DNA of 64,000 nucleotides from Minisyncoccota bacterium (GTDB lineage: Bacteria; Patescibacteriota; Minisyncoccia; UBA6257; 2-01-FULL-56-20). A program made the position numbers and the translations under genes. Shown piece after piece: positions 4,847 to 18,968 of this stretch. The stretch lies in assembly GCA_035541435.1 (NCBI GenBank), contig DATKNL010000010.1, positions 30,250 to 94,249 on the forward strand, read 5' to 3'. Numbering within the stretch: the stretch's first letter is position 1; the number at the start of each line of letters is the position of its first letter. The notes beneath the pieces are model-generated. The model was given only the letters and a program-made list of their open reading frames with translations. It did no database searches and was not told where the DNA came from.

Positions 4847-6772
4847 TTATTGCACAACGAGGTTCAGCTGGCACCCCGTCGAGCGGAGCGATGCGTCGTC
4901 CTGGCGTTCGCGATAGATGACGAGCAGGCTGTATGATCCGCGCGCCGCCCGCGCCGACGCCGAAAGCGTCGCCGTCACGGTGCTTGTCGCGTCGGTCACG
5001 GGGCCGGGCACAAGGGACGACGACACGCCGGGCGGAAGCGATCCGAGCCGCACGCTGTAGAGCGGATGCTGATAGCCGTTCGGCAGGGACGGCGCGGACG
5101 CGCCGGGCTTCACCGTCGTGGACGGCGTCGTGAGCCCCGAAAAGAGCTCGATGGCATAGCTCGCGCTCGTGCCGCGCGCGACCGTCTGCGAGAACGGCGC
5201 GGCGACGCACTGCTGGTGCGCCCCCTGCTGGAAGACGTCGGCCTGCGGGATGGCGGGCTGCTGCAGGATGTCCTGCGGCGGAATGTCGGTGGCGGTCGTG
5301 TCCGGCTGCCCCGTCGCATCCGGCGATGACGCGGCGGTGTCGGCCGCAACCGACCCGTCGGCCGCCGACGATTGATCGGCGGGCGGCGTGATCGTCGTCG
5401 TCCCTTCGGGCGTGTCGACATAGGAAACCTCGACGCCGGCCGCATCAAGATAGACCTTCGGCGCGTCGGACGTGCCAAGCCCCACGAACGCGACCTGCAG
5501 GTGCGCGAGCTCGTCCCACGACGAGATCGGGATCGGATAGCGTCCCGACTGCCAGTTGTCGTCGTGGATGTTCACGAGGGGCTGCCAGGTCGTGCCATCC
5601 GTCGAATAGACGAGGCCGAGGAAGTCGCCCGGCGTGCTCGACGGCAGGATGATGTTCTGGAATACCGACGTGTTCACGGTGATGGGCGCGGGCGGCGTCG
5701 CGGTCGTCGGAACCCCTTCGGTCGTCGTCGCCATGAGCGCCGTCGACGAATCGGCCACGGCGGCGGCGCTCGTCGCATCGGCGTACGCCTTTTGGGGCAT
5801 CAGTTCGAAAAGCCACGACGTTGGCGACGAAGGTGGCGGCGGGGTTGCGTCGGGCGCAGGCGTAGCGGGCGCGGGTGTCGGCACCGGCGTCGGTTCGGGC
5901 GATGGCAAGGGCGTCGGCTCCGGTGCGGGCGCAGGCGGAGGAGGCGTTTCCGAAGATGATGACGACACGGTATCCGACGATGGTGCGATCAAAGGAGCAG
6001 ATGCATCGGTGGACGAAGCGGTGCCGCCATCGGACGCGGGCGCCGCAGGCGAAGGCGAGGTCGACGTCGCACCGTCGGATGGCGCAGGGACCGTCGACGT
6101 GGCCGCCGTCGACGAAGCCGCATCGTCGGTGCTCGAAGCCGCCGTCACGTCGGACGTCGAAACCGGTGCCGCCGAAGCGCCACCGCCCCCTCCTCCGCTC
6201 GCGGGCGCGGCCTGGGGCAGGTCGACATACCACGAGAGCACGAGCGTGGCGGATTGGAAGTTCTTTCCCGCGAGGTCGCTGATCGGGACGTCACCCGAAA
6301 AGTTGCCGCAGAACATCTGCTGCGTCCCGGTCGAAAAGACGGCCGAATTGAGCCCGGTGAACGACGAGCCGGGCGATCCCGCGGCGACCTCGGGCCTGCC
6401 GAGCGCATTCTGCACGTTGTCCCAGCTGCCAAGGCACGATGACGGATAGAAATCGACGGTCGTCGCGAATCCCACGAGCAGGAACCGCACGAAAAGCCCC
6501 AATATGAAAACGGCGGCGAACGCGATGAGCGGCCGGCGGTACGTCACGGCGAACTTCTTCGCCGCGCGGCGGCTCACCTCGAACTCGACATGCAGGATCA
6601 GCTCACGGAGCATCACGGTCTTCGGCGCCGCACCGGTCCTGATGTCGATAAGGTGCGAGTCGGGACGGCGGCCGCGCTTGCGGCGCGAGAGCGCGAGCGC
6701 GCGGTCCCGAAGCGTCCGCACGCGGGCCGCAAGGCGTTCCTTCACCCGGGCGATCCGTTCCCGCATGGTCAC
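4847..6772 (-). CDS. Membrane-anchored protein with long Pro/Thr/Ser/Ala-rich low-complexity linker
   Basis: 641-aa ORF. Basic N-terminus then one TM (LIAFAAVFILGLFVRFLLVGFA). PAPEPTPLPSPEPTPVPTPAPATPAPDATPPPP linker and Ala/Ser/Thr tracts. 4-bp overlap with the upstream gene at 6769-6772. Confidence 0.55.
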   Translation of the reverse strand: MTMRERIARVKERLAARVRTLRDRALALSRRKRGRRPDSHLIDIRTGAAPKTVMLRELILHVEFEVSRRAAKKFAVTYRRPLIAFAAVFILGLFVRFLLVGFATTVDFYPSSCLGSWDNVQNALGRPEVAAGSPGSSFTGLNSAVFSTGTQQMFCGNFSGDVPISDLAGKNFQSATLVLSWYVDLPQAAPASGGGGGGASAAPVSTSDVTAASSTDDAASSTAATSTVPAPSDGATSTSPSPAAPASDGGTASSTDASAPLIAPSSDTVSSSSSETPPPPAPAPEPTPLPSPEPTPVPTPAPATPAPDATPPPPSSPTSWLFELMPQKAYADATSAAAVADSSTALMATTTEGVPTTATPPAPITVNTSVFQNIILPSSTPGDFLGLVYSTDGTTWQPLVNIHDDNWQSGRYPIPISSWDELAHLQVAFVGLGTSDAPKVYLDAAGVEVSYVDTPEGTTTITPPADQSSAADGSVAADTAASSPDATGQPDTTATDIPPQDILQQPAIPQADVFQQGAHQQCVAAPFSQTVARGTSASYAIELFSGLTTPSTTVKPGASAPSLPNGYQHPLYSVRLGSLPPGVSSSLVPGPVTDATSTVTATLSASARAARGSYSLLVIYRERQDDASLRSTGCQLNLVVQ

Positions 6773-8601
6773 TCCGAGGCAAGCGCCTTATCGACGTCGT
6801 CGATCTCTTTCTGGATGGTCGTTTCGGAAATCGCGAGCGCGTTGCGCATGGTGTCGAGCACGCGTTCGGGTTCGAGCCGCTGCTCGCCCTGCGCCTGAAG
6901 CGCCCCGCCCTCCATGTGGCTAATCTGGTCGTCGACTTCCTCGCGGAGCGTCTCGAAGACCACCCGGGTCTTCACGCGCGCTTCGGCGTTCTCGCGTTTC
7001 GCCAGCGCGACCTGGATGTCGAGGATCTTCTTCTTATAGAAGCCGAAGGTCACGAGGCCGCTGATCACGGCGACGAGGAGCACGATGAGCGCCCAGCCGA
7101 AGCGGTCGAGGAACGGCGCGGGAATCACGTCCATGAACGCCTTGGCGGTCGTGCTCGCGAACGCGCCCTGCGTGGTGACCATCGAGACGACGAGCGTGTA
7201 CTTGCCGGTCGAGAGGCCGCTCTCGACGGCATAGAGCCAGTGGCCGGTCTCGTCGGCGGTCATCTTGCCCTCGCTCATCACCTTGCCCGTGCCGTCGTTC
7301 ACGTCGACGGTCACGTTCGAGCCGCTATCGGCGACGCCCTCGAGGACGATCGGCGATTTCTCGATGACGGCCGCGGGGAAGTTCGTGATCTCAGGCTGGG
7401 AGACGCCCGATATGTCGAACTCGGCGTCGGCTTCGGTGCTGTTGCCCGCCTTGTCGACCGCGAGGACCGCGACCGTGTGCTTGCCCGGCAGGAGCGGCGC
7501 CGCGGTATAGGCGCCGTTCTTCACGTCGGACAGGGCGACCGTCGTCGAGGCCGTCCCATCGAACACCACGAGGTAATGATCGATGCCCGAAACCGTGTCA
7601 GTCGCATTGAAGAGCAGGACGGTGCGTCCGGAGATGCCGGCACCGGGCTGCGCGGTCACCGTAAAGGGCTGCGGCGGCGTCACGTCGATCTGCACCTGCA
7701 TGGTGACCGGGTCGCTCCAGTTGCCCAGAGCGTCCTCGAACCGGACATGGAAATAGGACAGGCCCTCGGCGACGTTCGAATACTGCTTCGACGAGATGAG
7801 GCCCTGCGATGTCCGCTTCGGATAGGTCGACGGGTTCGTGTCGAGCACCGCGTTCACGCCGGCGATGTCGGGGGTGAGCTGCCAGGTGAAGTTCGGATTC
7901 GCGCTCGCGTACCACTTCGTGGGATCAGGATGCGTAGGAGATGCGATCGTTACGCTCGGCGTGAAGCCGGAAGGAGCCGCGCCGCCCGCCGATCCGTCGC
8001 CGCCCGAGGAGCCGGCCGCAGCTCCAGACGAGCCGCCGCCGCCCGATGAACCGCCGGAGCCGCCGGACGAACCCTTCGACGATCCCGACGATGAACCGGC
8101 GCCGGCCGATCCGCTCACCGTGAACGATCCCTTCGTCGTTCCCGAAAGCACGTTCGTTCCCTGTCCGTCCGCCGCAAGCGCGTCAGCCGACGCGAACGCC
8201 AGATCGGTCGATCCCGCCTTGAGCGCCTTGAAGGTCACGTCGCAGATGTCGCCCGCGCTGCCGGTATAGGCTTCGGTACTGCCGCCGCTGAACGAAACCG
8301 ATCCGTCGGTGTTCGAAAACGACGGGTCCTTCACCCACAGGTTGAAGACCGAATTCCCCTTTGAAATGCTCTGCACCGCGAGCACGGTCGGGTCGAACGT
8401 CAGCTTGCCGTCCGCGGCGTTCACCCCGATGCCGCCGCCGCTGTCGAGCATGATGCTCACGGTGAACGTGCCGCCGACCGCATAGGTCCCGCTGGACGGC
8501 GTGACCGACATCGCGGCCGCGCCCGCGCCGAAGCTGCCCGCCGGGAAGGCGAGCGTCACAAGGCCGAACGCGGCAAGGGCGATGACGAGGCTATTTTTCA
8601 T
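6769..8601 (-). CDS. Surface protein with N-terminal cohesin-like domain, Gly/Ser linker, Ig-like region, C-terminal TM anchor and coiled-coil tail
   Basis: Track ORF 6769..8766. Start assigned to ATG at 8601 (MKNSLVIALAAFGLVTLAFPAGSFGA signal peptide). Cohesin-like module TFTVSIMLDSGGGIGVNAADGKLTFDPTVLAVQSISKGNSVFNLWV...DICDVTFKALKAGSTDLAF. GSSSGSSKGSSGGSGGSSGGGGSSG linker. C-terminal TM WALIVLLVAVISGLVTFGFYKKK, then a charged helical tail. Confidence 0.6.
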   Translation of the reverse strand: MKNSLVIALAAFGLVTLAFPAGSFGAGAAAMSVTPSSGTYAVGGTFTVSIMLDSGGGIGVNAADGKLTFDPTVLAVQSISKGNSVFNLWVKDPSFSNTDGSVSFSGGSTEAYTGSAGDICDVTFKALKAGSTDLAFASADALAADGQGTNVLSGTTKGSFTVSGSAGAGSSSGSSKGSSGGSGGSSGGGGSSGAAAGSSGGDGSAGGAAPSGFTPSVTIASPTHPDPTKWYASANPNFTWQLTPDIAGVNAVLDTNPSTYPKRTSQGLISSKQYSNVAEGLSYFHVRFEDALGNWSDPVTMQVQIDVTPPQPFTVTAQPGAGISGRTVLLFNATDTVSGIDHYLVVFDGTASTTVALSDVKNGAYTAAPLLPGKHTVAVLAVDKAGNSTEADAEFDISGVSQPEITNFPAAVIEKSPIVLEGVADSGSNVTVDVNDGTGKVMSEGKMTADETGHWLYAVESGLSTGKYTLVVSMVTTQGAFASTTAKAFMDVIPAPFLDRFGWALIVLLVAVISGLVTFGFYKKKILDIQVALAKRENAEARVKTRVVFETLREEVDDQISHMEGGALQAQGEQRLEPERVLDTMRNALAISETTIQKEIDDVDKALASE

Positions 8602-9184
8602 CCAGGGCTTTGACCGCCAGCTTTTTGCCGGCGCCGGGCTTCTTCGACGGCAGCACGACGACAAGCACGCCCTTCTCGGAAACGGCGCTCGCCTCGCTCG
8701 GATCGAACGCGGCGGGGAGATAGACTTTGCGATACAGGGTCCGCCATTTGATTTCCTGCTTGGCATAACGGCCCTTCTCGTCGTTGCCCTCGGGGGCGCC
8801 CGGGATGGGCGGGAGCGTCGGGCGCTTCTGCGTCACCTGGACGGTGACCGTGTTCGCCTCCTCGTCGATCACGAGATCGACGTCCTCTTTCGCGACGCCG
8901 CCGATCTGAAAGAAAAGCACCATGCGCGCATCGGATTGGAAGAGGTCGACATCGAGCGGCTCGGCGCCTTCGGGAAGCTGCTCCTTCGGCGGCTCCTGGG
9001 ATGCGGCCTGCGCGGCCGCGGCGTTCGCGTTCGCGGCGGCAGCCGGTGCGCCCGCGGGTGCGGGGACGGCGACGCGCTCGCCGGTTCCCTTGAACGAGAC
9101 GCTTTTCGCCGGCGCCTGCGCGGGTTCCGGCGGCGCGTCAACCTCGTTCAGCCTGCTCGACAGTTTTTGATAGAACGAAAGCAT
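8591..9184 (-). CDS. Hsp20/alpha-crystallin family small heat-shock protein
   Basis: 197 aa. Alpha-crystallin domain ...DVDLFQSDARMVLFFQIGGVAKEDVDLVIDEEANTVTVQV...YAKQEIKWRTLYRKVYLPAAFDPSEASAVSEKGVLVVVLPSKKP. Last 11 nt overlap the start of the cohesin gene. Confidence 0.8.
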   Translation of the reverse strand: MLSFYQKLSSRLNEVDAPPEPAQAPAKSVSFKGTGERVAVPAPAGAPAAAANANAAAAQAASQEPPKEQLPEGAEPLDVDLFQSDARMVLFFQIGGVAKEDVDLVIDEEANTVTVQVTQKRPTLPPIPGAPEGNDEKGRYAKQEIKWRTLYRKVYLPAAFDPSEASAVSEKGVLVVVLPSKKPGAGKKLAVKALDEK

Positions 9185-9213: not shown

Positions 9214-10944
9214 TCACCCCGTCCAATGGAACAGGAGGATCGAAAAATCTGTCAGATTGACCGTCCCGTCGCCGTTGAAGTCGGTTCCCGCGAAATCGGT
9301 GTTCCAATGGAAGAGCAGAATCGAAAAGTCGACGAGGTTCACCTTGCCGTCGCCGTTCACGTCGCCGATCAGACCCTTTGACGACGGATTCTTGCCGACG
9401 CCGAGATAGGCGGGGTTCGAATAGTTGCTGCTCCCGAAGCCCGCGAGCTCCGCGCGCGCCTTCACAAGGTAGGTGTCGACAGCGAATCCCTTCGTCGCGA
9501 GGTCGACGCTCCACGCACCCGCGCCGTTCGCGAGCGTCGTCGTCGTGACCGGATTCTGCGCGTTCGTCTGGCTGATGACGGCGAGCGTGACGAGCGAAAG
9601 CGGCGGCGCCGAACCCGCGATGATGACGTCCGACCCCGGCGATACCGTGCTCGTGGCGAGCGAGAGGCCGGGCGGCAGCAGGATGTTCGTCACGCTGTTC
9701 GTCGTGCCGAGCACCACCGTGAGCGTCGTCGTGTACGACGCGATCGCATCGCCCGCCGCATCCTCCTCGACGATCGTAAATGAATAGGTGCCTTGCGGAA
9801 GGGCCGGGATCGACACCGAAAAGATGCCGCCATCGCCCACCCGCGCCGTCATGATCTGTTTGCCGTCCTGCAGGATGCTGAGCGGCGTGCCCGGGACGCC
9901 GAGTCCTTTCAGGATGAGGCTCGGCTGCGGCGGCGGTGCCGGAAACGTGTCGCCGCCCCCGCCGCTCCCGCCACCCGTGCCGGGAAGCGCGACCGGACCG
10001 CCGCCCGTGCCGCCGCCCAGTCCCGTTCCCGTCGGATCGCCCGCCTTGAACTCGATCACGTAATCATTTGGATTCACGTTGCCGACGAAATCCATGCAGC
10101 GCACATAGATGTCATAGGTCGTCCCCTTCGCGAACGGTCCCATGAAGTTCGCGGTATGGAACGTACCGATCGACGTGTGCGCGAACCCGTTCGGCATCGC
10201 GTCATAGGCGACGCCCGACGACGTCGCATAACGGCACGTCGAATAGACGTCGGTGTTCACCGAGAGCAGCACGCCGTTCACGTTCGACGGGATCGTTCCC
10301 GACGGCATGCCGTTCGAAATGACCGCGGGGTTCACGCGGTCCTGGTTCACGTCGACGCCGACCGCCGGCAGGACGGCGGTCATCGCCGCGCCCTCGTCGA
10401 GCGGCGCGCCGCCGGCGTCATAGGTGTTCAAAAGGATGCGATAGGAGCCGGTCGAGCTCGGGTTCGTGATCTGGTCGATACCCTGGCCGCCGAAGGTCGC
10501 ATTCTGCCCGAGAAGGATCCGCACGTAGGAATTGGCCGGGATGCCGCCCCCCGACGAGAGCGTGACCGTCATCGGCCCCGTCGGCGCGCCGGCCGAAAAG
10601 CCGTCATGGGCCGCGTCGGGCGCCGCCGCAAGCGAACGGTCCGTGAAGTTGCCGATGGGCGACGTGGGCGATACGGCGATGTCCGCATCGCCGAAATCGA
10701 ACGAGGGATCGATCGAGAACGCATCGCCTTCGAACGTGATCACGATCGTGCCCGACGCCGGGATGCCGCTCGGGACGCCGAACACGATGCGGTGGTCCGC
10801 AACGGTCGACGGGCGCGAATCGGTCACGGTGTCGCTCACGAACGTGAGCCGCGCCGCGTGCGCGCCGTGCGCAAGCGCTAAAAAAACGGCTGCCGCAAGA
10901 CAGGTCGCCGTTACCGCGCGCGCTCGCCAGGTCGGGGTGTGCAC
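9214..10944 (-). CDS. Secreted protein with C-terminal tandem dockerin (type I) repeats
   Basis: Signal peptide MHTPTWRARAVTATCLAAAVFLALAHGAHA. C-terminus GDVNGDGKVNLVDFSILLFHWNTDFAGTDFNGDGTVNLTDFSILLFHWTG is a canonical duplicated Ca-binding dockerin segment. Gly-rich linker GGGTGGGPVALPGTGGGSGGGGD. N-terminal module VSDTVTDSRPSTVADHRIVF is shared with the gene at 12562-13680. Confidence 0.7.
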   Translation of the reverse strand: MHTPTWRARAVTATCLAAAVFLALAHGAHAARLTFVSDTVTDSRPSTVADHRIVFGVPSGIPASGTIVITFEGDAFSIDPSFDFGDADIAVSPTSPIGNFTDRSLAAAPDAAHDGFSAGAPTGPMTVTLSSGGGIPANSYVRILLGQNATFGGQGIDQITNPSSTGSYRILLNTYDAGGAPLDEGAAMTAVLPAVGVDVNQDRVNPAVISNGMPSGTIPSNVNGVLLSVNTDVYSTCRYATSSGVAYDAMPNGFAHTSIGTFHTANFMGPFAKGTTYDIYVRCMDFVGNVNPNDYVIEFKAGDPTGTGLGGGTGGGPVALPGTGGGSGGGGDTFPAPPPQPSLILKGLGVPGTPLSILQDGKQIMTARVGDGGIFSVSIPALPQGTYSFTIVEEDAAGDAIASYTTTLTVVLGTTNSVTNILLPPGLSLATSTVSPGSDVIIAGSAPPLSLVTLAVISQTNAQNPVTTTTLANGAGAWSVDLATKGFAVDTYLVKARAELAGFGSSNYSNPAYLGVGKNPSSKGLIGDVNGDGKVNLVDFSILLFHWNTDFAGTDFNGDGTVNLTDFSILLFHWTG

Positions 10945-10973: not shown

Positions 10974-11390
10974 TCAGGCGCCGCCGCCCGCCGCGGGTCC
11001 GCGGTCCTCATCGTGATTCGCCTCGCGCTCCGAACGTCGCCAGTCGAAATAGAAGTTGAGGCCGACGAGCAGCGCAAGGATGCCGACGATGACGATGAGA
11101 TAGCGCATGAGCGGCGACGATGCGGCCGCGCTCGAAGCCGCCGTGTCCGAGGCGAGCGCCTCCTTTTGCGCCTCGAGGTCGGCCTGCTCCATCTCGAGCT
11201 GGGTCTGCTTCGCATCGAGCTGGGCGTTCAGCGTGTTGTAGGGGTTCGGCTCGATGCCAAGCGTCACGCCGACCTGGGCGAGCATGCGTCCGGCCGTCGA
11301 CGACTCAAGCGCGCGGCTGCCGACGAAGCCGACGGCGATCAGTCCGATCGCCGCCATGCTGATGAAGACTCCGATGGCCTTGCGGAGCAT
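10974..11390 (-). CDS. Small membrane protein (two TM helices flanking a coiled-coil segment)
   Basis: 138 aa. TM1 IGVFISMAAIGLIAVGFVG, central QLDAKQTQLEMEQADLEAQKEALAS, TM2 YLIVIVGILALLVGLNFYF. 1-nt TGATG overlap with the upstream gene. Confidence 0.45.
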   Translation of the reverse strand: MLRKAIGVFISMAAIGLIAVGFVGSRALESSTAGRMLAQVGVTLGIEPNPYNTLNAQLDAKQTQLEMEQADLEAQKEALASDTAASSAAASSPLMRYLIVIVGILALLVGLNFYFDWRRSEREANHDEDRGPAAGGGA

Positions 11391-12508
11391 CAGCCAAAGA
11401 AGAAGAACAGGACGAGCAGGAAGACGATGGCGAAGATGGCGGTCGCGATAAGGATGAAGACGAGGCGCGAGAACGGCAGGCGGTCTTCGGCGAGGAACCG
11501 CTCCTCGGCCGAGGCGCCGCGGTCAGGGCGGCCCGACGTCATCGCGGCGACCCTGCGGCGCACATAGGCGCGCACGGACCAGACAAAGATGAGGACGAAG
11601 AACAGGATGCTCCCGAGGACGGCGATGATCGGGACGACCGGGATGATCCAGAACGAGACTTCGCGCGAGACCGTCTTCTGTCCCTGATCGCCGTAGGTGA
11701 GCGACATCACGGCGTCGAAACGGCCCATCATGAATCCGGTCCCCGTCCAATGCGCGGTGAAGCTGCGGTCGGTTCCCGGGAAGATCGCGGCGTTGCCGTC
11801 GTTCATGATCGCCTCGCCAACCTTCTGGCCGAACATGTTCATGATGTCGATCGGGCCGCGCGGACGAAGCAGCACGTTGCCGTCGTTGTGCGCGATCGCC
11901 GTAAACGTCACGTCGGGCGCCTGATAGAGCCCCTTGTCGGTGCTGAATTCCTGGATCTGCGCGTCTTCGGTCGCCTCGCCCGCGATGCGGAGGTCGATGA
12001 GCGATCCGACCTCATAGCCGATGCCCGTTCCCGTGAAGGCCGGCCGCTTGGCGCCGAGCGTCACGAAGATCGCGCCATAATGGCCGCCCGGAGCCGCGGT
12101 CTTCGGGACCGTGATCGTGAAGGGAACGACGGCGCTGCCGTTCGCGGGAATGGTGATGACGGGATTCGCGATCGAAACCCACGAGCTCAGGCCGTATTCG
12201 GGGACCGATGACGACGTGAAGACCGGCTGTCCGGTCGCCGTCATGTCCGATATGTTCTCGACGGTCACCGTGAACTGCTTCGCCGTCGGATCAGGGTTCG
12301 TCACCGTGATCGACGTCGAGAACGTGTCGCCCGGGTTGACGAGCTGCTCAAAAAGCGCTGGCTGGACTTTGATACCCGTTCCGACCGTCTGCGTTTGTGC
12401 GTGGGCAAGGGGGAGCGCGACCGCTGCGACGATGGCAATCGCCATCAGTCCTTTCAACGCGTTTTTCATGGTTTGCTTCATCGTATCACGAGAGTTCCCG
12501 GTCGACAA
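11390..12508 (-). CDS. Cell-surface protein, DUF916/CscA-like: signal peptide, ~250-aa domain, C-terminal TM anchor and charged tail (paralog 1 of 3)
   Basis: 372 aa. Signal ...AIAIVAAVALPLAHAQT. Motifs PGGHYGAIFV, NDGNVLLRPRGPI, TDRSFTAHWTGTG. C-terminal TM IIPVVPIIAVLGSILFFVLIFVW then basic tail. Same architecture and motifs as 13797-14912 and 14909-15949. Confidence 0.6.
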   Translation of the reverse strand: MSTGNSRDTMKQTMKNALKGLMAIAIVAAVALPLAHAQTQTVGTGIKVQPALFEQLVNPGDTFSTSITVTNPDPTAKQFTVTVENISDMTATGQPVFTSSSVPEYGLSSWVSIANPVITIPANGSAVVPFTITVPKTAAPGGHYGAIFVTLGAKRPAFTGTGIGYEVGSLIDLRIAGEATEDAQIQEFSTDKGLYQAPDVTFTAIAHNDGNVLLRPRGPIDIMNMFGQKVGEAIMNDGNAAIFPGTDRSFTAHWTGTGFMMGRFDAVMSLTYGDQGQKTVSREVSFWIIPVVPIIAVLGSILFFVLIFVWSVRAYVRRRVAAMTSGRPDRGASAEERFLAEDRLPFSRLVFILIATAIFAIVFLLVLFFFFG

Positions 12509-12561
12509 TGCACATGATCCAGCAAAAAACCCCGAGGATTCGGGGTTTTTCGGCGTCTTCC

Positions 12562-13680
12562 TTAGAAGACCGGGGTTGCGACGTAGATGAGGTTATTCGT
12601 GTAATCGTTGGCCGCAGGTTGCAGCGGGCTGATTTCGATGCGGAAGGCGACTTTCGCCGCGCCTACGTTCTGCGTCACGCCGTCAGCCGGACCGGTCCAG
12701 GCGAAGACCGTGAGCGTCGATGTCGGCTGGAAGCTGCCGGCGTAGAGCGGGGTCGACGTTCCGAAGGCCAGGGTGCCGCTTGCGTCGTCGCTCGTGATGC
12801 CGAAGTGGCCATAGGTGTTCGGGTTGTTGATCGTATTGGCCGGAGCCGCCCATGAGCTCGGAACGCTCGTCGCGTTCGCGTCGCGGAAGAGGTGGATCTT
12901 GAACCCTGTCTGGCTCGTGAGATCCTGGTCCTCATGCACCGTCACGGCGAACCCGTTCGCGGCGTTGGTCGTCACGTTCAGCTGTTGGCCAAGTTCGGCA
13001 TGGGTGTTTGGCGCGATCGTCCCGAATGGCAGCGACGTCGTCGCGGAGGCCCCGGTCGTCGTCGCCCCGTTGCCAAGCGTCGTGCTCGTCGCCAGGCCGC
13101 CGACGGTGAAGGTGAAGGTCGTCGCGACCGCCGCGGTCACGTTCACGCCGTTCACGATGGCTACGCGGGTATCGGCCGAGTTGAGCTGGGTTCCGTTGAT
13201 CCTGATGATATAGGAACCGGTACTCGTCGGATTCGTGATCTTGTTGTTGAGGACCTGCAGGGTGATCGTACCGGCGTTCACGGTGTTTCCTGCACAGACC
13301 GTAAACGTCAGCGCGTTCGTGCTGGTTGTCATGCTCACGCGGTTCGATCCCGCGCTGCAGCTGCTCACAATCGACATGCCGGTCGACGTCACATCGGCTA
13401 AGCCGACCGTTTGGACGCCGGTAAAGAGGCTGCCCGTCGGGTCGAAGGTATAAACGATGGTCTGCGTGGCGGTCGTGGAGGTCGAGTTCGTATAGACGAT
13501 CGTGTGATTCGCGGCAAAACCGGGGCGCGAATCGGACAACGTGTCGCTCACCTGGGTGAGGTTTACGGCATGCGCGACCGAAATGGCATGCAGCAGGGTC
13601 GTCCACGCGAGAATGCTGATCACCAACCCGGCGGCAACGGCGACCGTCAAATCTTTCTTGAGATACTTTTGGGAAACCAT
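12562..13680 (-). CDS. Thr-rich secreted protein, paralogous to 15949-17277, possible WxL-like surface protein
   Basis: Track ORF 12562..13731. Start chosen at ATG 13680 (MVSQKYLKKDLTVAVAAGLVISILAWTTLLHAISVAHA signal peptide); 13731 is the alternative. N-terminal VSDTLSDSRPGFAANHTIVY module shared with the dockerin protein. C-terminus ...LIYVATPVF parallels ...VVYVATPSY of the 15949 gene. Confidence 0.5.
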   Translation of the reverse strand: MVSQKYLKKDLTVAVAAGLVISILAWTTLLHAISVAHAVNLTQVSDTLSDSRPGFAANHTIVYTNSTSTTATQTIVYTFDPTGSLFTGVQTVGLADVTSTGMSIVSSCSAGSNRVSMTTSTNALTFTVCAGNTVNAGTITLQVLNNKITNPTSTGSYIIRINGTQLNSADTRVAIVNGVNVTAAVATTFTFTVGGLATSTTLGNGATTTGASATTSLPFGTIAPNTHAELGQQLNVTTNAANGFAVTVHEDQDLTSQTGFKIHLFRDANATSVPSSWAAPANTINNPNTYGHFGITSDDASGTLAFGTSTPLYAGSFQPTSTLTVFAWTGPADGVTQNVGAAKVAFRIEISPLQPAANDYTNNLIYVATPVF

Positions 13681-13796
13681 GTCTTTTGGGGAAAACGTAA
13701 GGACCTTTTTGGTTCTGTTCTTACCATTCATTATCTAAACAGATTGTAAACACCGCAAGGACCACTTATCCACAAGCCGTCAAGGGTCTTTCCCGA

Positions 13797-14912
13797 TCAC
13801 CGTCGTTTTCTCAGATCAACGACGTCGGAGGACTCCTCTTTATTATGTTTTTCATGCGGCGCGACCGCTTCCTGAGGCGACGGATGAGCCGGGGGCGGAA
13901 CGGGCGGAATGCCGGCGAGGCCGCCCCACTGCCCCATTTCCCGCATGAGGGTCCTCTTTATATAACGTCGCACGAAGATCACGAAGCAGACGATGACCGC
14001 AAGGAACCCGCCGACGTCCTCAACGACCTTCTTCCACGGCAGAACCCAGAACGTGATCGTCTGCGAAACCGTCTTCGACTGATCGCTCCCATAGGCAAGG
14101 GTGACGACCGCCGTATATTCGCCGATCCCCCACAGCGTCATCGGACCCTGCCACTCCGCGCCGAACCTTCTCGTGCTCGAAGGGAGGACGTAGCCGAGGT
14201 CGCGTCCCTGGTTGATGCTCACGCGCCCGGCTTCGTGGCCGAGCATCGTGTAGACCTCGATCTGTCCCGCGGGACGCAGGTGAACATTGCCGTCGTTCGC
14301 GAACCTGATCGTGAAGTTCACGTCGGGATCCGCATACCACGACCGGTCGGACGAGAATTCCTGGATGGCGCCCGATTCCTTCACGTCGCCCGACACGCTC
14401 ACGAAGATGAGCGCCGAGATATAGCTGCTCACGCCGACGAACGATCCGTTGCCTGACTTCGCCGCAGGCGGCGTGCCGATGAGGATCGCTGCGTAATGGC
14501 CGCCGGGCGACGCGTCCTTCGGGACGGTGACCGAAAACGGGACGTCGGCCGCCGTCCCCGGCGGGACGGTGACGGACGGCTCGCGGACCGTGATCCAGTT
14601 CGCAAGCTGATCGGTGTCGTTCGCGATGTTCGCAAGCGGCACGAACGTGCCGTGCCCCTGGTCGTCGGACGGCGCGAACCCGGCCGTGACGGCCCGCACG
14701 GTGAGACTCGACGTGTTCGTGTTCACGACCCTGATCGAACTCGACCACGAGTCGCCCGGACTCACGTTCAGCGTAAAGAACGGCGGCGTGATCGTGAGCG
14801 AAGTCGCGCCTTCGGATTGCGCGTGCGAGAGGAGCGGAGCGGCGCACGCTGCCGCCAGGGTGACGGCCGCGCACGATGCGAATATTTTTTTCACGGTCGA
14901 CGTCGTATTCAT
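13797..14912 (-). CDS. Cell-surface protein, DUF916/CscA-like (paralog 2 of 3)
   Basis: Start set at ATG 14912 (MNTTSTVKKIFASCAAVTLAAACAAPLLSHAQS signal). This gives an ATGA overlap with the stop of the upstream paralog, whereas the track's longer ORF would overlap it by 230 bp. Motifs PGGHYAAILI, NDGNVHLRPAGQIEVY, RRFGAEWQG. C-terminal TM FLAVIVCFVIFV plus a Pro-rich tail. Confidence 0.6.
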   Translation of the reverse strand: MNTTSTVKKIFASCAAVTLAAACAAPLLSHAQSEGATSLTITPPFFTLNVSPGDSWSSSIRVVNTNTSSLTVRAVTAGFAPSDDQGHGTFVPLANIANDTDQLANWITVREPSVTVPPGTAADVPFSVTVPKDASPGGHYAAILIGTPPAAKSGNGSFVGVSSYISALIFVSVSGDVKESGAIQEFSSDRSWYADPDVNFTIRFANDGNVHLRPAGQIEVYTMLGHEAGRVSINQGRDLGYVLPSSTRRFGAEWQGPMTLWGIGEYTAVVTLAYGSDQSKTVSQTITFWVLPWKKVVEDVGGFLAVIVCFVIFVRRYIKRTLMREMGQWGGLAGIPPVPPPAHPSPQEAVAPHEKHNKEESSDVVDLRKRR

Positions 14913-15949
14913 ATTCGTGTTCGTGTGCGCGATGTCCGATGCGCATAGGGAGGCCGCGGCGGTTCCGCATCGCGCGGCCCGCGAAGATCGACCACATCCC
15001 TGCGCTTCATGAGATGGGCGATCACGCTCTTCCGCCGATGGTGGCGCTTCAGATAGGACCGGTGCAGCGCGACCGCAACGATGATGACGAGCGCGAGCAG
15101 TCCCGCAAAGAGCGCGAGAAGTTTCTGCCACGGCATCACCCACACGAGCGCCGTATCCGCGAGCTGCGCATCGCGCGCGCCATAGGTCGCTTCGAGGCTC
15201 GCCTTATATTCGCCCATCCCCGAACCGCCGCCGTCCCATCGCGCGGTGAACGTCTTCGTGTCGCCCGGCGCGATCGCGACGCCCGAAGGGTTCGCGGGGA
15301 CCGATCCGAGCTCGTGCCCGATGTTGTCATAAAAGATGACCGATCCCGCGGGTGTCGTCACGACCGTGCCGTCGTTCCGGATCTGATAGCTTATGACGAC
15401 GGGAAATCCCGATGAAAAGCGCTTTTCGGGGCCGAATTGCACGAGCTGCAGGTCCTCTTTTGCATCCGAGGCAACGGTGAAGTTGACGAGCGTTTGCGGG
15501 GCTCCCGTGAGATGCTGCTCGGCTTCGTCCCTCGTGGAACCCTCGACGAAGGCGATGACCGCATGATAGTCGCCGGCGGTCGCATACGGGTTCACATTGA
15601 TCTCGACCGGCACCGTTTTCGATTCGCCCGGCGCGAAGATCATGGCCCCGCGCGTGACGCTGATCCAGTCGGCGAGCAGCGCGGGACGGTCCGATGTCGA
15701 GGGATCGGTGAACGGCTGGCTGCCGTCGGCCGTGAGCTCGTAGACCGACGCGAAGACGTTCACCTGATGATCGGTGACGTTCGTCACGGTGAGCGAATAG
15801 TCGGATATGTCGTGCGGCAATCCGTGGGCGTCGATCACCGCGGGCGTAACGGTGAGATCGGGAGCCGCATGGGCGACGGCGGCGCCCGCTCCGGGCAGGA
15901 TGCCGCTCGTCATGACCGCGACCGCGATTGCGATGAGGACGTTCTTCAT
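14909..15949 (-). CDS. Cell-surface protein, DUF916/CscA-like (paralog 3 of 3)
   Basis: Start set at ATG 15949 (MKNVLIAIAVAVMTSGILPGAGAAVAHA signal), with a 1-nt TGATG overlap with the upstream gene. Motifs AGDYHAVIAF, NDGTVVTTPAGSVIFYD, TKTFTARWDGGG. C-terminal TM LLALFAGLLALVIIVAVAL plus a basic tail. Confidence 0.6.
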   Translation of the reverse strand: MKNVLIAIAVAVMTSGILPGAGAAVAHAAPDLTVTPAVIDAHGLPHDISDYSLTVTNVTDHQVNVFASVYELTADGSQPFTDPSTSDRPALLADWISVTRGAMIFAPGESKTVPVEINVNPYATAGDYHAVIAFVEGSTRDEAEQHLTGAPQTLVNFTVASDAKEDLQLVQFGPEKRFSSGFPVVISYQIRNDGTVVTTPAGSVIFYDNIGHELGSVPANPSGVAIAPGDTKTFTARWDGGGSGMGEYKASLEATYGARDAQLADTALVWVMPWQKLLALFAGLLALVIIVAVALHRSYLKRHHRRKSVIAHLMKRRDVVDLRGPRDAEPPRPPYAHRTSRTRTRI

Positions 15950-17277
15950 CAGTATGATGGCGTCGCGACGTAGACGACATTGTCGCCATAGGAACCGTTC
16001 ACCTGGGTCGCGCCCGCCTGGATGCGATAGACGACGTCCACCGTGCTGCTCGACACCGGCACCGATCCATAGCCGATCTCGGCGGGCGTCGACGTGAGCG
16101 CCGCATAGGTGTCGTTCGCCGCGAAGCGCGTCGAGCCGCCGGCGAGCACCGGACTGCCCGGATGATAGCCGTAGCATGCGGTCGACGTCGCAAGGCATGC
16201 GCTCGTCCACGGCAGCGGGCTCACGTTCGTTCCCGCGACGCCGGGAATCGAATGCCCCTGCCCATCGGTGAGTGGCGAATCCTGATAGGCATAGATCTCA
16301 TAGCCGTTGCCTGCGTTCGTCGTGATCGAGAGCCGCTGCGCGCCCGCGACGCTCGTCGCGATGACGAGCGTTCCGAACGAGATCGAGGTCGCCGTCGTCG
16401 AGACGCCGGTCACGACGCCGTTCGTGCTCGTCCCTTGCGGGAGGCCGCTCACGCTGAACGTGAGCGCCGCGCCGGCGGTGAGCAGGCTCGGATAGGATGA
16501 CGTGGCATAGAGCGGCGCCGGCACGCCGGTGTCCGCATAGACGGGCCTGAAGAAATAGGTCGTGCCCGCGCTCGGCGCGATCCCCTGGACGGTGAATTCG
16601 AATTCCGCGGTGCTGCTCGCCGCCTGGGTGAACGTGCTCGTGCTCGTGCCCGACGTGTTGTGCGTGCCGCAGCCCGTGCCCGAGCCGGCCGCGCACGGCC
16701 CGCTCGTCGAGAGCACCGTCGACGATACGACGGCGTTGTCCGTGCCGCCCCCGGCGACCGACGCGTAGCACCACGTCGACGACGCCACGCAGCTGCCGAT
16801 GTCCGTCACGGCCGAGACGGCGGCGGAAAAATCGGAATAGGTCGAGTATTGCAGCGCGTACTTCACGTTGTCGGCGCCGACGCCGCCCGTCTCGCGGATG
16901 TCGATCCGCAGCTTGATCGCCTGGTTCGAGGCGATGTTCGACGGCGCGACGTTTTCTGCGGCAAGGGGACTCACGGGCTTCTCGTCGGCAGCGTCGCTGT
17001 ACCATCGCCATGCGTAGGACCGCGGCGCGAAGTCCGCATAGTTCTCCGGTCCCGCGTGATCAAGAAAGCTCGCGCTCGAGGCGTTCCCATTCACGAACGG
17101 CGTCGCGCCGCTCAGGACCTGGAAGTCCGTCGACGAGGACGATCCCGAAAAGAATCCGACATACGAATCCTCGACAAGAAAATGCGTGCTCGAAGCGATG
17201 TCGGCGCGCGACAGGAACGGAGCGGCAAGCGCAAGCACCGCCGCAGCTCCGAGTATGCCGAGCGTCCGCCGTGTCAT
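15949..17277 (-). CDS. Thr/Ser-rich secreted protein, paralog of 12562-13680
   Basis: 442 aa. Signal MTRRTLGILGAAAVLALAAPFLSRA. Ser/Thr/Gly/Ala-rich. C-terminal ...YRIQAGATQVNGSYGDNVVYVATPSY. Confidence 0.55.
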   Translation of the reverse strand: MTRRTLGILGAAAVLALAAPFLSRADIASSTHFLVEDSYVGFFSGSSSSTDFQVLSGATPFVNGNASSASFLDHAGPENYADFAPRSYAWRWYSDAADEKPVSPLAAENVAPSNIASNQAIKLRIDIRETGGVGADNVKYALQYSTYSDFSAAVSAVTDIGSCVASSTWCYASVAGGGTDNAVVSSTVLSTSGPCAAGSGTGCGTHNTSGTSTSTFTQAASSTAEFEFTVQGIAPSAGTTYFFRPVYADTGVPAPLYATSSYPSLLTAGAALTFSVSGLPQGTSTNGVVTGVSTTATSISFGTLVIATSVAGAQRLSITTNAGNGYEIYAYQDSPLTDGQGHSIPGVAGTNVSPLPWTSACLATSTACYGYHPGSPVLAGGSTRFAANDTYAALTSTPAEIGYGSVPVSSSTVDVVYRIQAGATQVNGSYGDNVVYVATPSY

Positions 17278-17280
17278 GGG

Positions 17281-17784
17281 CTAGTGGGAAAGGCTCTTGA
17301 TGGCCGCGACGACGGCGCTGTCAGGACGGAGCGTTTCCCAGAAGAAGATCTGTCCCATCGGGATCACCATCGCGTCCGTCGGACCGTGAATCTCGCTCCC
17401 CAGGCGCACCAGCTTGAGATTCGACTGGTCGGTTGCCCCCGAAAGGTCCTGCGCGTTGGGCGCGACCTGCAGATAATAGACGTCCGTCAGCGTGACCGTC
17501 GACGAGAACGGCACGTGAGAAAAATGCCCGAAATAGACCTGGTTGTTCGTGAGGAACACCGCCTGCCAGCTCGAGCGCGCCGCCGCATACGAGGAAAGTC
17601 CCCACGCGGCCACAGCGATCACGACGATCACGAGGAACCACTTGACGAACGTCCGCATGCCGCGGGGCCTGACGCTCCCGGGCCTCGGCGGCACATGCGG
17701 CGTCCCCGTCGGACCGGGCGCGCCATTCAGATTGAGTGTTGTGTTAGCCATGAAAATGATGATTGGGTTTGGTGTCTGGATCAA
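17281..17784 (-). CDS. Small single-pass membrane protein, hypothetical
   Basis: 167 aa. Pro/Gly-rich N-terminus, TM FLVIVVIAVAAWGLSSYAA, then a ~100-aa C-terminal domain. Start uncertain; alternatives are M at 17784 or 17751. Confidence 0.4.
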   Translation of the reverse strand: MIQTPNPIIIFMANTTLNLNGAPGPTGTPHVPPRPGSVRPRGMRTFVKWFLVIVVIAVAAWGLSSYAAARSSWQAVFLTNNQVYFGHFSHVPFSSTVTLTDVYYLQVAPNAQDLSGATDQSNLKLVRLGSEIHGPTDAMVIPMGQIFFWETLRPDSAVVAAIKSLSH

Positions 17785-17794
17785 TTCCTCGGGC

Positions 17795-18967
17795 TCATGG
17801 CGTTACCGATGCCGGATCCACGGGCGGCACGGATGTCGCGTCGACGTCCGGCGGCGGAGCCGTCGACGAGGCCGTCGTATCGATGGATGCGCCCAGGTCC
17901 TGCACGTCCGGCGCTGACGCCGCAGATGACGCCGCGTCAGGCGTGGTCGAGGCGTCGGCTGACGGGGCAGCGACATCCGCGGCCGCGGGGGTCGTCGCGT
18001 CAGGCGAAACGTCAGACGTCACGTCGGGAACCGCCGCGGGTGCCGGCGCTGCCGGAACGACGACTCCCGTGCCGCCTGAAAATCCCCCGCCGGACGATTC
18101 CCCGCCCGACGCCGGGGCGGCCGCATAGGTCTGGATGATGAGCCAGTCGAAAGCGACCGGTTGCGACTGCGGAGTCACGACGCCCACATGGAACCCGACG
18201 CCATCCAGTTTCTGCGTCACGGTGAGCGGCGCCTGCGATTCGGTCGTCGGCGTTATGAAAATCTTCGACGACGACGCGACCGCGGTGTTCGCAATGAAGA
18301 TGTCGCCCGCGCCGGTCGCGAGCACCGCCTCGCCGGTCAGCTGGTTCTCGCCGTGCGGCAGCGTGAGCGATCCGCCGGGAAGGATCGCGAGGTTTTTTGC
18401 GAACACGTTCACGGCCGCGACGACCGTCGCCTTCACGGAATTCGCGACCACCGTCGCGAAGGACTGCACGGCATCGCCCGCGTCGGCGACGATGCCGAAG
18501 AACTGGGCGATGGCCGCGTCGAGCAGCGACATGTCGTCGGGCGCCGCCGCAACGGACGAGGTGTCGATCGCGATCGTCGCCGTCGCGGTGACGACCGGGA
18601 CCGGCTCGGCGAAGATCACCGGCTGCACGGGCGCCACGCCCTGCGCGGCCACGGACGGAATCGGATTGCCCGCGGAATCCTCGTCATAGGCCTGCACGTC
18701 GAACGTCCCGCCCTGGCGGTCCGCATCGGGCACCTCGATCGCATAGGCGTATCCCCCATTCGCGCATTCCGGATCGCTGCTCCCCCAGATCGATCCGTCC
18801 GTCGCGTTCCTTATGACGACGAGCACGAACCGCGACGAGCACGAGCCCGCGATCGAAAGCATTCCCGATCCGGCATCGAACGAGACTGCGGAGGTCGCTG
18901 CGCGGATGGCGGCGGCAGGCGCGATGAGTGCCGCTGCGGCGGCGAGGATGGCGATGAATTTTTTCAT
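17795..18967 (-). CDS. Secreted hypothetical protein, Ala/Thr/Pro/Asp-rich C-terminus
   Basis: Track ORF 17795..18994. Start placed at ATG 18967 (MKKFIAILAAAAALIAPAAAIRA signal peptide), 2 bp after the stop of the upstream gene. Confidence 0.5.
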   Translation of the reverse strand: MKKFIAILAAAAALIAPAAAIRAATSAVSFDAGSGMLSIAGSCSSRFVLVVIRNATDGSIWGSSDPECANGGYAYAIEVPDADRQGGTFDVQAYDEDSAGNPIPSVAAQGVAPVQPVIFAEPVPVVTATATIAIDTSSVAAAPDDMSLLDAAIAQFFGIVADAGDAVQSFATVVANSVKATVVAAVNVFAKNLAILPGGSLTLPHGENQLTGEAVLATGAGDIFIANTAVASSSKIFITPTTESQAPLTVTQKLDGVGFHVGVVTPQSQPVAFDWLIIQTYAAAPASGGESSGGGFSGGTGVVVPAAPAPAAVPDVTSDVSPDATTPAAADVAAPSADASTTPDAASSAASAPDVQDLGASIDTTASSTAPPPDVDATSVPPVDPASVTP

Positions 18968-18968
18968 G

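Follow-up and report, generated by a model that had tools for sequence, protein, structure and literature searches.

What kind of surface structure is encoded by a row of genes in which membrane-anchored and secreted proteins alternate, in an ultra-small bacterium? Paceibacterota and other bacteria of the candidate phyla radiation have tiny cells, have mostly not been cultured and are believed to rely on other cells, and nearly all of their surface machinery is recorded as “hypothetical proteins”. The window analysed here, 64,000 nucleotides of one such genome, contains three membrane-anchored paralogs (labelled A1–A3), two secreted paralogs (B1 and B2) and a small transmembrane protein (sTM). 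A sequence-only reading of the window had proposed that these genes form a Csc-like complex. In Lactobacillales, Listeria and Bacillus, Csc/WxL clusters encode CscA, a WxLIP protein composed of DUF916, DUF3324 and a transmembrane segment (TM), together with the small WxL protein CscB, the large WxL protein CscC and the small LPxTG protein CscD. The analysis shows that the host is an ultra-small Paceibacterota bacterium carrying a conserved Csc-like surface-protein operon, in which the membrane-anchored half of the system is recognisable by homology and the secreted half shares a new C-terminal domain.

Gene Order and Conservation

All five A and B open reading frames are present where the sequence-only reading had placed them, on the minus strand. 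The operon begins with a large B and continues with A, A, small B, A, sTM and dockerin protein, frequently followed by genes for an HSP20 protein and a cohesin protein, and this order recurs across Paceibacterota. Both A and B genes were found in 70 of 83 loci from Paceibacterota genomes; the other 13 had B but lacked A inside the fetched flanks. In all 31 complete loci the A genes show position-specific orthology, A3 being the ortholog of position 1 and A1 that of position 3. An A gene directly follows the B2-type gene in 36 of 37 cases and the B1-type gene in 52 of 76.

The genes are also joined at their ends. The B2 stop codon overlaps the A3 start (TGATG), the end of A3 overlaps the start of A2 by ATGA, and the A1 stop overlaps the start of the sTM gene. 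These overlaps, which link B2-A3-A2 and A1-sTM, indicate that these genes are translationally coupled.

It could be argued that A and B are distinct surface proteins under common regulation, such as wall- or host-binding Ig-fold adhesins and an S-layer-like coat protein, which do not bind each other and alternate only through the history of the operon. Surface-protein genes cluster heavily in the window, lone B genes occur away from A genes, and the binding of A to B is something that we infer. The fixed gene order, the orthology by position, the near-constant succession of B2-type and A genes and the coupling of their codons all run against such independence, as does the homology of the A proteins to a family known to bind the adjoining secreted protein. 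This explanation is considered quite improbable.

Remote Homology of the A Proteins to WxLIP

The A3 gene (14909..15949, minus strand) encodes a WxLIP-like type I membrane protein of 346 amino acids, in which a signal peptide precedes two Ig-like domains, one TM and a basic tail. A2 (13797..14912, minus strand) is a WxLIP-like membrane protein of 371 amino acids with DVVDLR in its cytoplasmic tail. A1 (11390..12508, minus strand) is a further WxLIP-like membrane protein, 372 amino acids long when read from the TTG at 12508; the ATG at 12481 is the likelier start than this listed codon. A hydrophobicity scan revealed in each of the three an N-terminal signal-like hydrophobic segment and, near the C-terminus, a hydrophobic segment ahead of a charged tail, as the sequence-only reading had described. 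A1 deviates in having two C-terminal hydrophobic segments, as do A1-type proteins in 56 of 63 cases.

The paralogy that had been proposed for the three proteins is borne out by pairwise BLASTP: A1 and A2 share 34% identity over 293 amino acids (E 8e-57), with E 1e-26 for A1-A3 and 5e-24 for A2-A3. The motifs on which it was first based, PGGHYGAI/PGGHYAAI/AGDYHAVI and NDGNVLLRP/NDGNVHLRP/NDGTVVTTP, are likewise in place.

The assignment of these proteins to DUF916 is borderline at the level of Pfam. The DUF916/PGBD model PF06030 matches A2 just over its gathering cut-off (27.6 bits against 27.3) and A1 slightly under it (25.7 bits, with fn3_5 at 28.7 bits), and the Pfam scan gave no match of this model to A3. 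Within the A family, 35 of 53 members match PF06030 at E<=0.01, the best at 2.5e-7. The DUF3324 domain (PF11797, HBD), which had also been anticipated, was matched in neither A1-A3 nor the 53 homologs in the same scan. Profile-profile comparison settles the relationship more firmly. Using hhalign, the A family aligned with four Firmicutes WxLIP proteins over 256 columns, second domain included, with a probability of 96.8% and E 2.9e-10; the ectodomains alone gave 94.4% and E 8.8e-8 over 226 columns. When the A-family profile was compared with PDB sequences, the best match was EfmWxLIP1, in which the conserved YFDL is paired with PFFxL. Of the WxLIP motif NQIDKxxxYFDLK, the YFDL part alone has a counterpart in the A proteins (PP-F-F-x-L), and NQIDK is absent.

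Structure points in the same direction. In the AlphaFold2 (AF2) model of A2 (pLDDT 86.8), the second Ig domain spans residues 164-290 and a helix follows at 293-329. A Foldseek search with this model placed the Enterococcus faecium WxLIP chains 9i1y_A, 9i25_C and 9i1y_B at ranks 1-3 of 350,542 chains, with E values of 1.8e-11 to 4.2e-11 and TM-scores of only 0.37-0.51. The model also matches the chaperones of chaperone-usher systems almost as well (E 8e-10 to 1e-7), so that the presence of two Ig domains is not by itself specific. On the combined profile evidence, the A proteins are identified as remote homologs of CscA/WxLIP.

The B Proteins Share a New C-Terminal Domain

B2 (15949..17277, minus strand) is a secreted protein of 442 amino acids, the “large” or variable partner, with a signal peptide, an N-terminal part that varies between lineages and a C-terminal B domain ending in YVATPSY. 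Elsewhere this position is occupied by proteins of 430-2381 amino acids with the same C-terminal domain. B1 (12562..13680, minus strand) is the secreted “small” partner, 372 amino acids long, with a signal peptide, an N-terminal Ig module resembling BslA/YweA and a B domain ending in YVATPVF. Its longest open reading frame starts at 13731; the start used by NCBI and by the sequence-only reading is 13680.

The two proteins had been read as paralogs from their endings, and their similarity is indeed present, confined to the C-terminal ~190 amino acids (31% identity, BLASTP E 5e-12). The domain measures approximately 180-190 amino acids and ends no more than 3 residues from the C-terminus in 145 of 146 representatives. 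Its carriers come in small (~380 amino acids) and large (430-2381 amino acids) forms, with an overall range of ~340 to 2381. The family comprises at least 1450 clusters at 50% identity, is strictly C-terminal and has Phe or Tyr as its last residue, and no Pfam or NCBIfam model matches the B1 family; B2 likewise gave no Pfam match. It is a new, unannotated domain family common to secreted proteins.

It had been expected that these C-termini would carry WxL motifs. No Trp-x-Leu was found: its place is taken by N-G-[FY]-x-V and Y-[VI]-[ACV], with no Trp in 277 sequences, and TTNAxNG stands where WxL proteins have Asp-x-Arg-Gly (DxRG). The WxL model PF13731 gave 0 matches for B1, B2 and 57 homologs at E<=10. 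Comparison of the B domain with 120 PF13731 proteins by hhalign returned probabilities of 0.4-0.6% (P 0.09-0.14), reciprocal HMM searches between B and WxL reached 9.3 bits at most, and the solved WxL chain 9i25_A was not among the structural neighbours of B1 listed. By these sequence comparisons, the B proteins cannot be demonstrated as WxL proteins, nor can homology between the two domains. The proposal of a Csc-like complex is partly supported: its CscA component is borne out, and its WxL component cannot be demonstrated.

Could the B domain nonetheless be a bona fide, extremely diverged WxL domain, inherited from an ancestor shared with Bacillota or transferred from them? The cluster would then simply be a far-flung member of the Csc/WxL family. 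The Pfam WxL model also misses certain genuine Firmicutes partners, which use F or Y in place of W. The sizes are comparable, at about 185-190 amino acids for the B domain and 160-190 for WxL, and both domains are strictly C-terminal and occur in small and large proteins (PMC9772566; PMC1534035). The best local hhalign alignment places 'FGtL...Q.L.VtTNA.nGF.VtV' of B onto 'FG....IQVsD.RGT.aGW.vta' of WxL, and relaxed settings place the C-terminal 'DYt..l.YvATP' onto 'y.atiTWtLsd'. This reading is judged rather doubtful. As defined by Hassan et al., a WxL cluster has one or more WxLIP and, adjacent, two or more WxL proteins; the WxLIP part is present here three times, and B1 and B2 fail the WxL tests.

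In other respects the B domain is WxL-like, namely in its C-terminal position, its small and large or variable forms and its WxLIP-like gene neighbours. B1 and B2 sit in the right places for WxL partners although they fail the tests for them.

The Downstream Genes

The sTM gene (10974..11390, minus strand) encodes a small conserved bitopic or two-TM protein of 138 amino acids, with the motif VGVxPNPYNTLAxQL, a coiled-coil stretch and a C-terminal TM with LNFYxDWRR. Homologs are found in 55 loci. It takes the place of CscD, being similar in length (CscD has 90-140 amino acids, a signal peptide and an LPxTG sortase motif) and hydrophobic at both ends, but it lacks LPxTG; LPx[TSA]G occurs in 0 of 56 family members.

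The dockerin protein (9214..10944, minus strand) is secreted and 576 amino acids long, with a B1-type N-terminal module, Big_6/Big_13 Ig domains and a C-terminal type I dockerin (PF00404, 35.8 bits against a cut-off of 22.9, E 9e-9). The recurrence of the B1 module at its N-terminus, as earlier suspected, extends over 166 amino acids at 30% identity (E 5e-12). Homologs occur in 64 loci, with Dockerin_1 in 8 of 8 sampled. Embedded in the cluster is a gene for an HSP20 family small heat-shock protein (8591..9184, minus strand) with no evident signal peptide, which is also found in 24 other loci and in L001.

The cohesin protein (6769..8601, minus strand) is membrane-anchored and consists of a cohesin, Big_13, a TM and a coiled-coil tail. 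Its start is probably the ATG at 8601, although the open reading frame reaches 8766. The cohesin itself is clear (PF00963, 42 bits against 24.1, E 1.4e-10), so that the reported linkage to cohesin and dockerin is sound. Homologs are present in 34 loci, and in L001 the gene has the same position. It is presumed to be the receptor of the dockerin protein.

A Proposed Csc-Like Surface Complex

The reading preferred here, to which a probability of about 60% is assigned, is that the operon core encodes a Csc-like, non-covalent cell-surface complex whose partner domain has diverged or been replaced. A3, A2 and A1 are anciently diverged WxLIP-type proteins of the cytoplasmic membrane with a C-terminal TM anchor, and their two Ig-like ectodomains would catch the secreted B proteins by the B domain and keep them at the surface. 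The A protein would most likely bind by inserting a β-strand, the mode reported for WxLIP:WxL. There, AF2 predicts a hairpin strand that completes the sandwich of the WxL domain (PMC10599100), and the title of PDB entry 9i25 reads 'WxLIP ... bound to long WxL'. On the other side, the AF2 monomer model of B1, which is confident (pLDDT 92) and has no gaps, contains nothing that calls for a donated strand. The lack of demonstrable homology between the B domain and WxL, the chaperone-like fold of A2 and the 13 loci with B but no A inside the fetched flanks also count against the complex.

B2 would be the variable, adhesin-like “large” partner and B1 the uniform “small” one. B1 is probably made in excess, since a promoter-like site and a terminator of its own flank the gene. 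The former (13743..13772, minus strand; TGGATA-18-TACAAT) lies directly upstream of B1 and is a consensus match only; such sites are no more numerous in the region than expected from shuffled sequence. The terminator-like hairpin (12524..12550, minus strand) reads AACCCCGA-ATCC-TCGGGGTT then T6, 12 nt past the B1 stop. A hairpin with T-run follows 39% of B1-type genes, compared with 9-16% for other cluster genes. The dockerin protein would be a third secreted component, attached to the neighbouring membrane-anchored cohesin protein. The role of the whole may be the attachment of the ultra-small bacterium to hosts or particles.

A different prospect is that of a fibre. B1 would be the major subunit of a surface filament, assembled in the manner of TasA, chaperone-usher pili or the TLP-1 pond fibrils through donor-strand exchange, with B2 as tip or adhesin and the A proteins as membrane-tethered PapD-like chaperones or assembly platforms and not static anchors. 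The structural matches are to generic Ig-like folds with low TM-scores, and the sequence homology of the A proteins points to WxLIP and not to PapD-type chaperones. In its AF2 monomer model, B1 is complete and shows no free N-terminal extension. No usher, sortase or SipW-like gene was seen among the cluster proteins scanned. A fibre of this kind is unlikely.

A bolder version of anchoring, offered as an unlikely speculation, treats the A-B pair as a membrane-tethered chaperone-anchor machine. Through strand exchange, the WxLIP-type A proteins would complete the B subunits, hold them and perhaps also polymerise them, with B1 as abundant shaft or coat, B2 as variable tip adhesin and the cohesin-dockerin link as a third arm: a monoderm filament or anchoring machine not recognised before. 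If true, Paceibacterota would possess a lineage-wide attachment organelle, and WxLIP systems and chaperone-assisted pili would share one mechanistic principle.

For the Csc-like complex, no papers tying Patescibacteria to WxL or Csc systems were found in the literature searched, and an A-B surface assembly of this type has probably not been described before in the Paceibacterota lineage. Seven to nine “hypothetical proteins” are now placed in one conserved operon, and homology ties that operon to a Gram-positive system whose complex (WxLIP:WxL) has a known structure. Testable predictions follow as to which proteins bind which and which component is abundant. WxLIP-type anchoring would extend well beyond Bacillota, giving a handle on adhesin display in Paceibacterota cells.

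Comparison with Known Systems

The closest parallel is the Csc/WxL cluster. Both systems have a homologous membrane-anchored, two-Ig-domain WxLIP-type protein, adjoining secreted proteins that share a ~190-amino acid, strictly C-terminal domain in short and long variable forms, Sec export of all components, an operon layout and a small membrane protein. The differences are considerable. The present cluster belongs to Patescibacteria and not to Bacillota, and has three position-specific WxLIP paralogs in place of a single cscA. Its partner domain lacks W-x-L and D-x-R-G, and WxL was matched neither in sequence comparisons nor among the structural neighbours listed; its “small” partner B1 has an additional N-terminal Ig module. 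The small membrane protein is without LPxTG, and the operon also encodes a conserved protein with a dockerin and a membrane protein with a cohesin.

Chaperone-usher systems (PapD/Caf1M/CsuC and pilins) also place a two-Ig-domain protein beside genes for Ig-fold subunits, with strand complementation as the expected binding mode. The present system lacks both an outer membrane and an usher, its A proteins are tethered to the membrane and share homology with WxLIP instead of PapD, and the B model has no missing strand. No usher or PapD Pfam matches occurred in the cluster proteins scanned; the likeness of A2 to chaperones is at the fold level only. The TasA/TapA and BslA/YweA proteins of Bacillus subtilis differ in showing no sequence similarity, in the lack of SipW/TapA equivalents here and in their operon partners. 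With cellulosomes, the cluster shares a predicted cohesin-dockerin pair, both over Pfam cut-offs: the secreted protein bears a type I dockerin and the adjoining membrane-anchored protein a cohesin. In contrast to cellulosomes, it has no glycoside hydrolases and a single cohesin, and the pair shares its operon with a system for WxLIP-type anchoring.

Gene Order and Genomic Setting

The cluster lies on the minus strand and is transcribed in the order B2 (15949-17277, 442 aa), A3 (14909-15949, 346 aa), A2 (13797-14912, 371 aa), B1 (12562-13680, 372 aa), A1 (11390-12508, 372 aa), a small TM protein (10974-11390, 138 aa) and a dockerin protein (9214-10944, 576 aa). The sequence-only reading took the three A genes, which encode membrane-anchored proteins, and the two B genes, which encode secreted proteins, to be alternating sets of paralogs, and the ORFs and alignments confirm this. 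The A proteins can be aligned with each other over ~300 residues (BLASTP E-values of 8e-57 for A1/A2, 1e-26 for A1/A3 and 5e-24 for A2/A3). B1 and B2 resemble each other only over ~190 residues at the C-terminal end (31% identity, E 5e-12), termed here the B domain. The N-terminal module of B1 was also said to recur in the dockerin protein, and the N-terminus of the latter does resemble the initial ~140 residues of mature B1 (E 5e-12). Each A protein carries a signal-like segment at the N-terminus and a hydrophobic C-terminal segment followed by a basic tail, with A1 deviating in that it has two such hydrophobic segments. B1 and B2 possess a signal-like N-terminal segment only. Stop and start codons overlap at the B2-A3 (TGATG), A3-A2 (ATGA) and A1-small TM protein (TGATG) junctions.

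The G+C content of the window is ~60%, with neither a prophage nor a composition island in evidence. There is no RNA family match in the cluster region; a tRNA-Arg (CCG) at 23275-23347 (-) is the sole RNA gene detected in the 64-kb window. As B1 and A2 are identical to VMT99_02550 and VMT99_02555, both annotated as hypothetical proteins in the MAG of a “Candidatus Paceibacterota bacterium”, the host genome is that of a member of the candidate phyla radiation (Patescibacteria) and not of a Firmicute.

Conservation of the Operon

When one genome from each GTDB species was scanned by pattern, 242 B-encoding stretches were found. All of the loci fetched (79/79) originate from MAGs labelled Paceibacterota, Parcubacteria or Patescibacteria, including Kaiser-, Lloyd-, Harrison-, Sung- and Nomurabacteria; some are nominally labelled “Saccharibacteria”. 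Searches of all ORFs with A-family and B-domain HMMs found A and B together in 70 of 83 loci. The typical layout, on one strand, is large B, A, A, small B, A, (small TM) and a protein with the B1 N-terminal module. In each of the 31 complete B-A-A-B-A loci, the first, second and third A genes best match A3, A2 and A1, while the large and small B correspond to B2 and B1. Both sets of paralogs, the three A and the two B genes, are therefore old and position-specific. Where enough downstream sequence was available, an A gene lies directly downstream of 36/37 B2-type and 52/76 B1-type genes. The remaining B genes are lone copies, the first of tandem B1 duplicates, or part of a variant A...B arrangement.

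The neighbouring genes recur as well. Single-sequence searches retrieved the small TM protein in 55 loci, the dockerin-type protein in 64, the membrane-anchored cohesin protein in 34 and HSP20 in 24. A C-terminal Dockerin_1 domain is present in all eight downstream proteins sampled, and a 913-kb contig has an identical gene order from the HTH_17 gene through to the cohesin gene. The physical linkage to cohesin and dockerin, proposed from this one sequence, is therefore conserved and not a coincidence of this genome.

Neighbouring Genes

The small TM protein has hydrophobic N- and C-terminal segments and a coiled-coil stretch, and is without an LPxTG motif or family match. It contains an invariant-looking VGVxPNPYNTLAxQL motif, with LNFYxDWRR in the last TM segment, and in the 55 related loci its gene always has A1 on one side and the dockerin gene on the other. 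An HSP20/alpha-crystallin gene (8591-9184, -), with no evident signal peptide, resides between the dockerin and cohesin genes and overlaps the likely cohesin start; in comparison locus L001, two copies flank the cluster.

The surface-protein region to which the cluster belongs spans at least 20 kb. The flanks at 694-8766 (-) and 17281-18994 (-) are dense in large secreted or anchored hypothetical proteins. These include an Fn3/purple-acid-phosphatase-N repeat protein (694-2367, -), Thr/Ser/Pro-rich proteins of 864 and 641 aa without Pfam matches, and proteins of 399 and 167 aa. In a 796-aa ORF (18969-21359, -), an HTH_17-like N-terminal segment is followed by a TM segment at 91-128 and by extended Thr-rich sequence, which weakly matches (E 1.4e-4) the N-domain of mosaic adhesive trimer fibres from Bdellovibrio. 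Since the HTH part and the remainder are separate genes in L001, this ORF may be a fusion or contain a missed frameshift.

The A Proteins as Remote WxLIP/CscA Homologs

The sequence-only reading described the A proteins as DUF916/CscA-like. The Pfam results bear this out in part: PF06030 (DUF916, now “WxLIP_PGBD”) is matched by A2 at 27.6 bits (cut-off 27.3) and just under the cut-off by A1 (25.7), with no match for A3, and by 35/53 A-family members at E<=0.01. PF11797 was matched by none of the 53 members in the Pfam scan. A precomputed PF06030 label is already attached to a few A homologs.

The A-family profile was compared by hhalign with four WxLIP proteins known to be genuine, which are encoded on plasmids of Enterococcus, Listeria and Lactiplantibacillus. 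The probability was 96.8% (E 2.9e-10), and the 256 aligned columns take in the two Ig domains as well as the TM helix. With the signal peptide and TM helix removed, the probability was 94.4% (E 8.8e-8, 226 columns). The best PDB sequence match of the profile is EfmWxLIP1, placing the conserved YFDL on PFFxL, at an E-value of 0.26 that is not significant by itself. The AF2 model of A2 (pLDDT 86.8) comprises beta-sandwich domains at 39-146 and 164-290 and a long C-terminal helix at 293-329. In a Foldseek search of 350,542 PDB chains, the model's first three matches are E. faecium WxLIP (E ~2e-11), in the free form 9i1y and in 9i25 (“bound to long WxL”), followed by chaperone-usher chaperones such as CsuC, Caf1M and CfaA. 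These results support the A proteins as remote homologs of WxLIP/CscA.

That the A and B proteins are merely co-regulated, each acting independently at the surface, is quite unlikely given the fixed gene order, the translational coupling and the homology of the A proteins to a partner-binding family.

In A2 and A3, the tails predicted to be cytoplasmic (window 13797-13830 and 14909-14960, -) have a common [VIL][VIL]DLR motif, which reads DVVDLR in both. It occurs in 23/52 A2-type, 7/46 A3-type and 0/63 A1-type orthologs; A1-type proteins have the second hydrophobic C-terminal segment in its place. A LytR_C domain (PF13399) is found on some A2-type homologs. Such tail differences hint at a cytoplasmic or second extracellular interaction.

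The B-Domain Family

At E<=1e-3 the B-domain profile matches 1450 clusters of representative sequences (50% identity), and 235 remain at E<=1e-30; the taxonomy of the clusters looked up is given as “Patescibacteria group” and nothing finer. The 150 representative matches listed are close family members (all E<1e-47). In 145/146 listed proteins, no more than three residues separate the end of the domain from the C-terminus. The final residue is Phe in 230/277 domains and Tyr in 45/277, as part of a terminal motif, [VI]-[ACV]-T-P-x-[FY], that is nearly invariant. Recognition or burial of the free C-terminus itself is suggested by this. The domain is carried by uniform ~380-aa proteins (B1 type) and by B2-type proteins, which vary from 430 to 2381 aa and have N-terminal regions that match nothing in Pfam. 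In being strictly C-terminal, of similar size and present on small and large hosts, it is like the WxL domain, which is always C-terminal, 160-190 aa in length, and found on small and large proteins (PMC9772566; PMC1534035).

The claim that the B proteins are WxL proteins did not hold: they are not demonstrable members. B1 and B2 have zero Pfam or NCBIfam matches, 57 B1 homologs searched against Pfam at E<=10 gave none that is meaningful, PF13731 included, and the B-family profile has no PDB sequence match at E<=10. Weak matches to “choice-of-anchor T”, NEDD4_Bsd2, DUF945 and K1-lyase_C are far under the cut-offs and were dismissed as noise. The hhalign probability (in %) was 0.2 against eight WxL sequences and 0.08 against five small WxL proteins. 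A large WxL profile from 120 PF13731-positive proteins, compared with 131-277 B domains, gave a probability of 0.4-0.6% (P 0.09-0.14), and reciprocal hmmsearch (--max) reached at most ~9 bits.

The alignments are co-linear, with FGTL...QLVTTNAxNGFxVTV of B on FG...IQVsDxRGTxaGWxv of WxL, and the terminal DYTxxLxYVATP on yxatiTWtLsd. The positions equivalent to W-x-L are F/Y-x-V and Y-[VI]-[ACV], with Trp in 0/277 B domains, and TTNAxNG takes the place of DxRG. Homology based on this three-motif resemblance by eye is statistically unsupported and is not claimed.

The Pfam WxL model misses genuine partners, namely the large Listeria protein L005:6897-9362 and both L. plantarum partners in L006; a missing PF13731 match alone is thus weak evidence. 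The first motif of the missed Firmicutes partners (plasmid clusters L004-L007) is F-S-V, F-S-I or Y-T-I, not W-x-L. That the B domain is a true, extremely diverged WxL domain remains a minor possibility, as it passed none of the tests applied.

Structure and Expression of B1

The B1 model (pLDDT 92) consists of two beta-sandwich domains. Its best Foldseek matches are MSCRAMM adhesins, the TasA fibre (E 4e-4) and BslA. The WxL chain 9i25_A, part of the PDB set searched, is absent among the structural matches listed. In sequence searches this chain was retrieved by a small-WxL profile and not by phmmer with the C-terminal fragment of the E. mundtii large WxL protein.

A promoter-like site (13743-13772, -) is located 10-60 nt upstream of B1. 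A perfect intrinsic-terminator hairpin, AACCCCGA-ATCC-TCGGGGTT followed by T6 (12524-12550, -), lies 12 nt past the B1 stop, inside the operon. Across 83 loci, perfect hairpins of at least 5 bp with a T-run, no more than 110 nt downstream of the gene, follow 39% of B1-type genes vs 9-16% for the other six cluster genes. Judged from these signals, B1 may be produced in excess of the other components, which is usual for a major structural subunit.

The same signals, together with fold-level matches to chaperones, pilins, TasA and TLP-1, would suit a fibre in which B1 polymerises by donor-strand exchange and the A proteins serve as tethered chaperones. However, the B1 monomer model is complete and there is no usher, sortase or SipW-like gene among the cluster proteins scanned, which makes such a fibre unlikely.

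Proposed Surface Complex

WxLIP is a membrane-anchored protein of two Ig domains that binds the WxL domain of neighbouring secreted proteins, and AF2 predicts that the WxL sandwich gains a strand from a WxLIP hairpin (PMC10599100). For the WxLIP-WxL complex, a crystal structure has been deposited (9i25). From the homology of the A proteins to WxLIP and the positional and architectural parallels of the B proteins, we infer that A binds B. A3, A2 and A1 would keep B2 and B1 on the cell surface by way of the B domain, probably by strand insertion. The sole low-confidence internal segment of the A2 model is the loop at 147-163, which, speculatively, is a candidate strand donor. The membrane-anchored cohesin protein would retain the dockerin protein, which bears the N-terminal module of B1. 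Collectively, the A, B, dockerin and cohesin proteins may form a multi-arm, non-covalent surface complex.

The variable large B protein suggests that this complex could have an adhesive role. Such a role is plausible for ultra-small bacteria living attached to other cells or particles.

Comparison with Csc/WxL Clusters

The system would work like a Csc/WxL cluster, and its A side belongs to the WxLIP family. The host phylum differs, being Patescibacteria; Firmicutes hold >91% of known WxL proteins, and no published link between Patescibacteria and WxL, Csc or DUF916 was found in the literature searched. The secreted partners differ in that they are without W-x-L motifs and did not pass the tests for the WxL family. 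The small membrane protein likewise does not qualify as CscD, with LPxTG in 0/56 members. Firmicutes clusters have a single cscA (PMC1534035), whereas three position-specific WxLIP paralogs are encoded here. In addition, the small partner carries an extra Ig module, and a cohesin-dockerin pair is integrated into the system.
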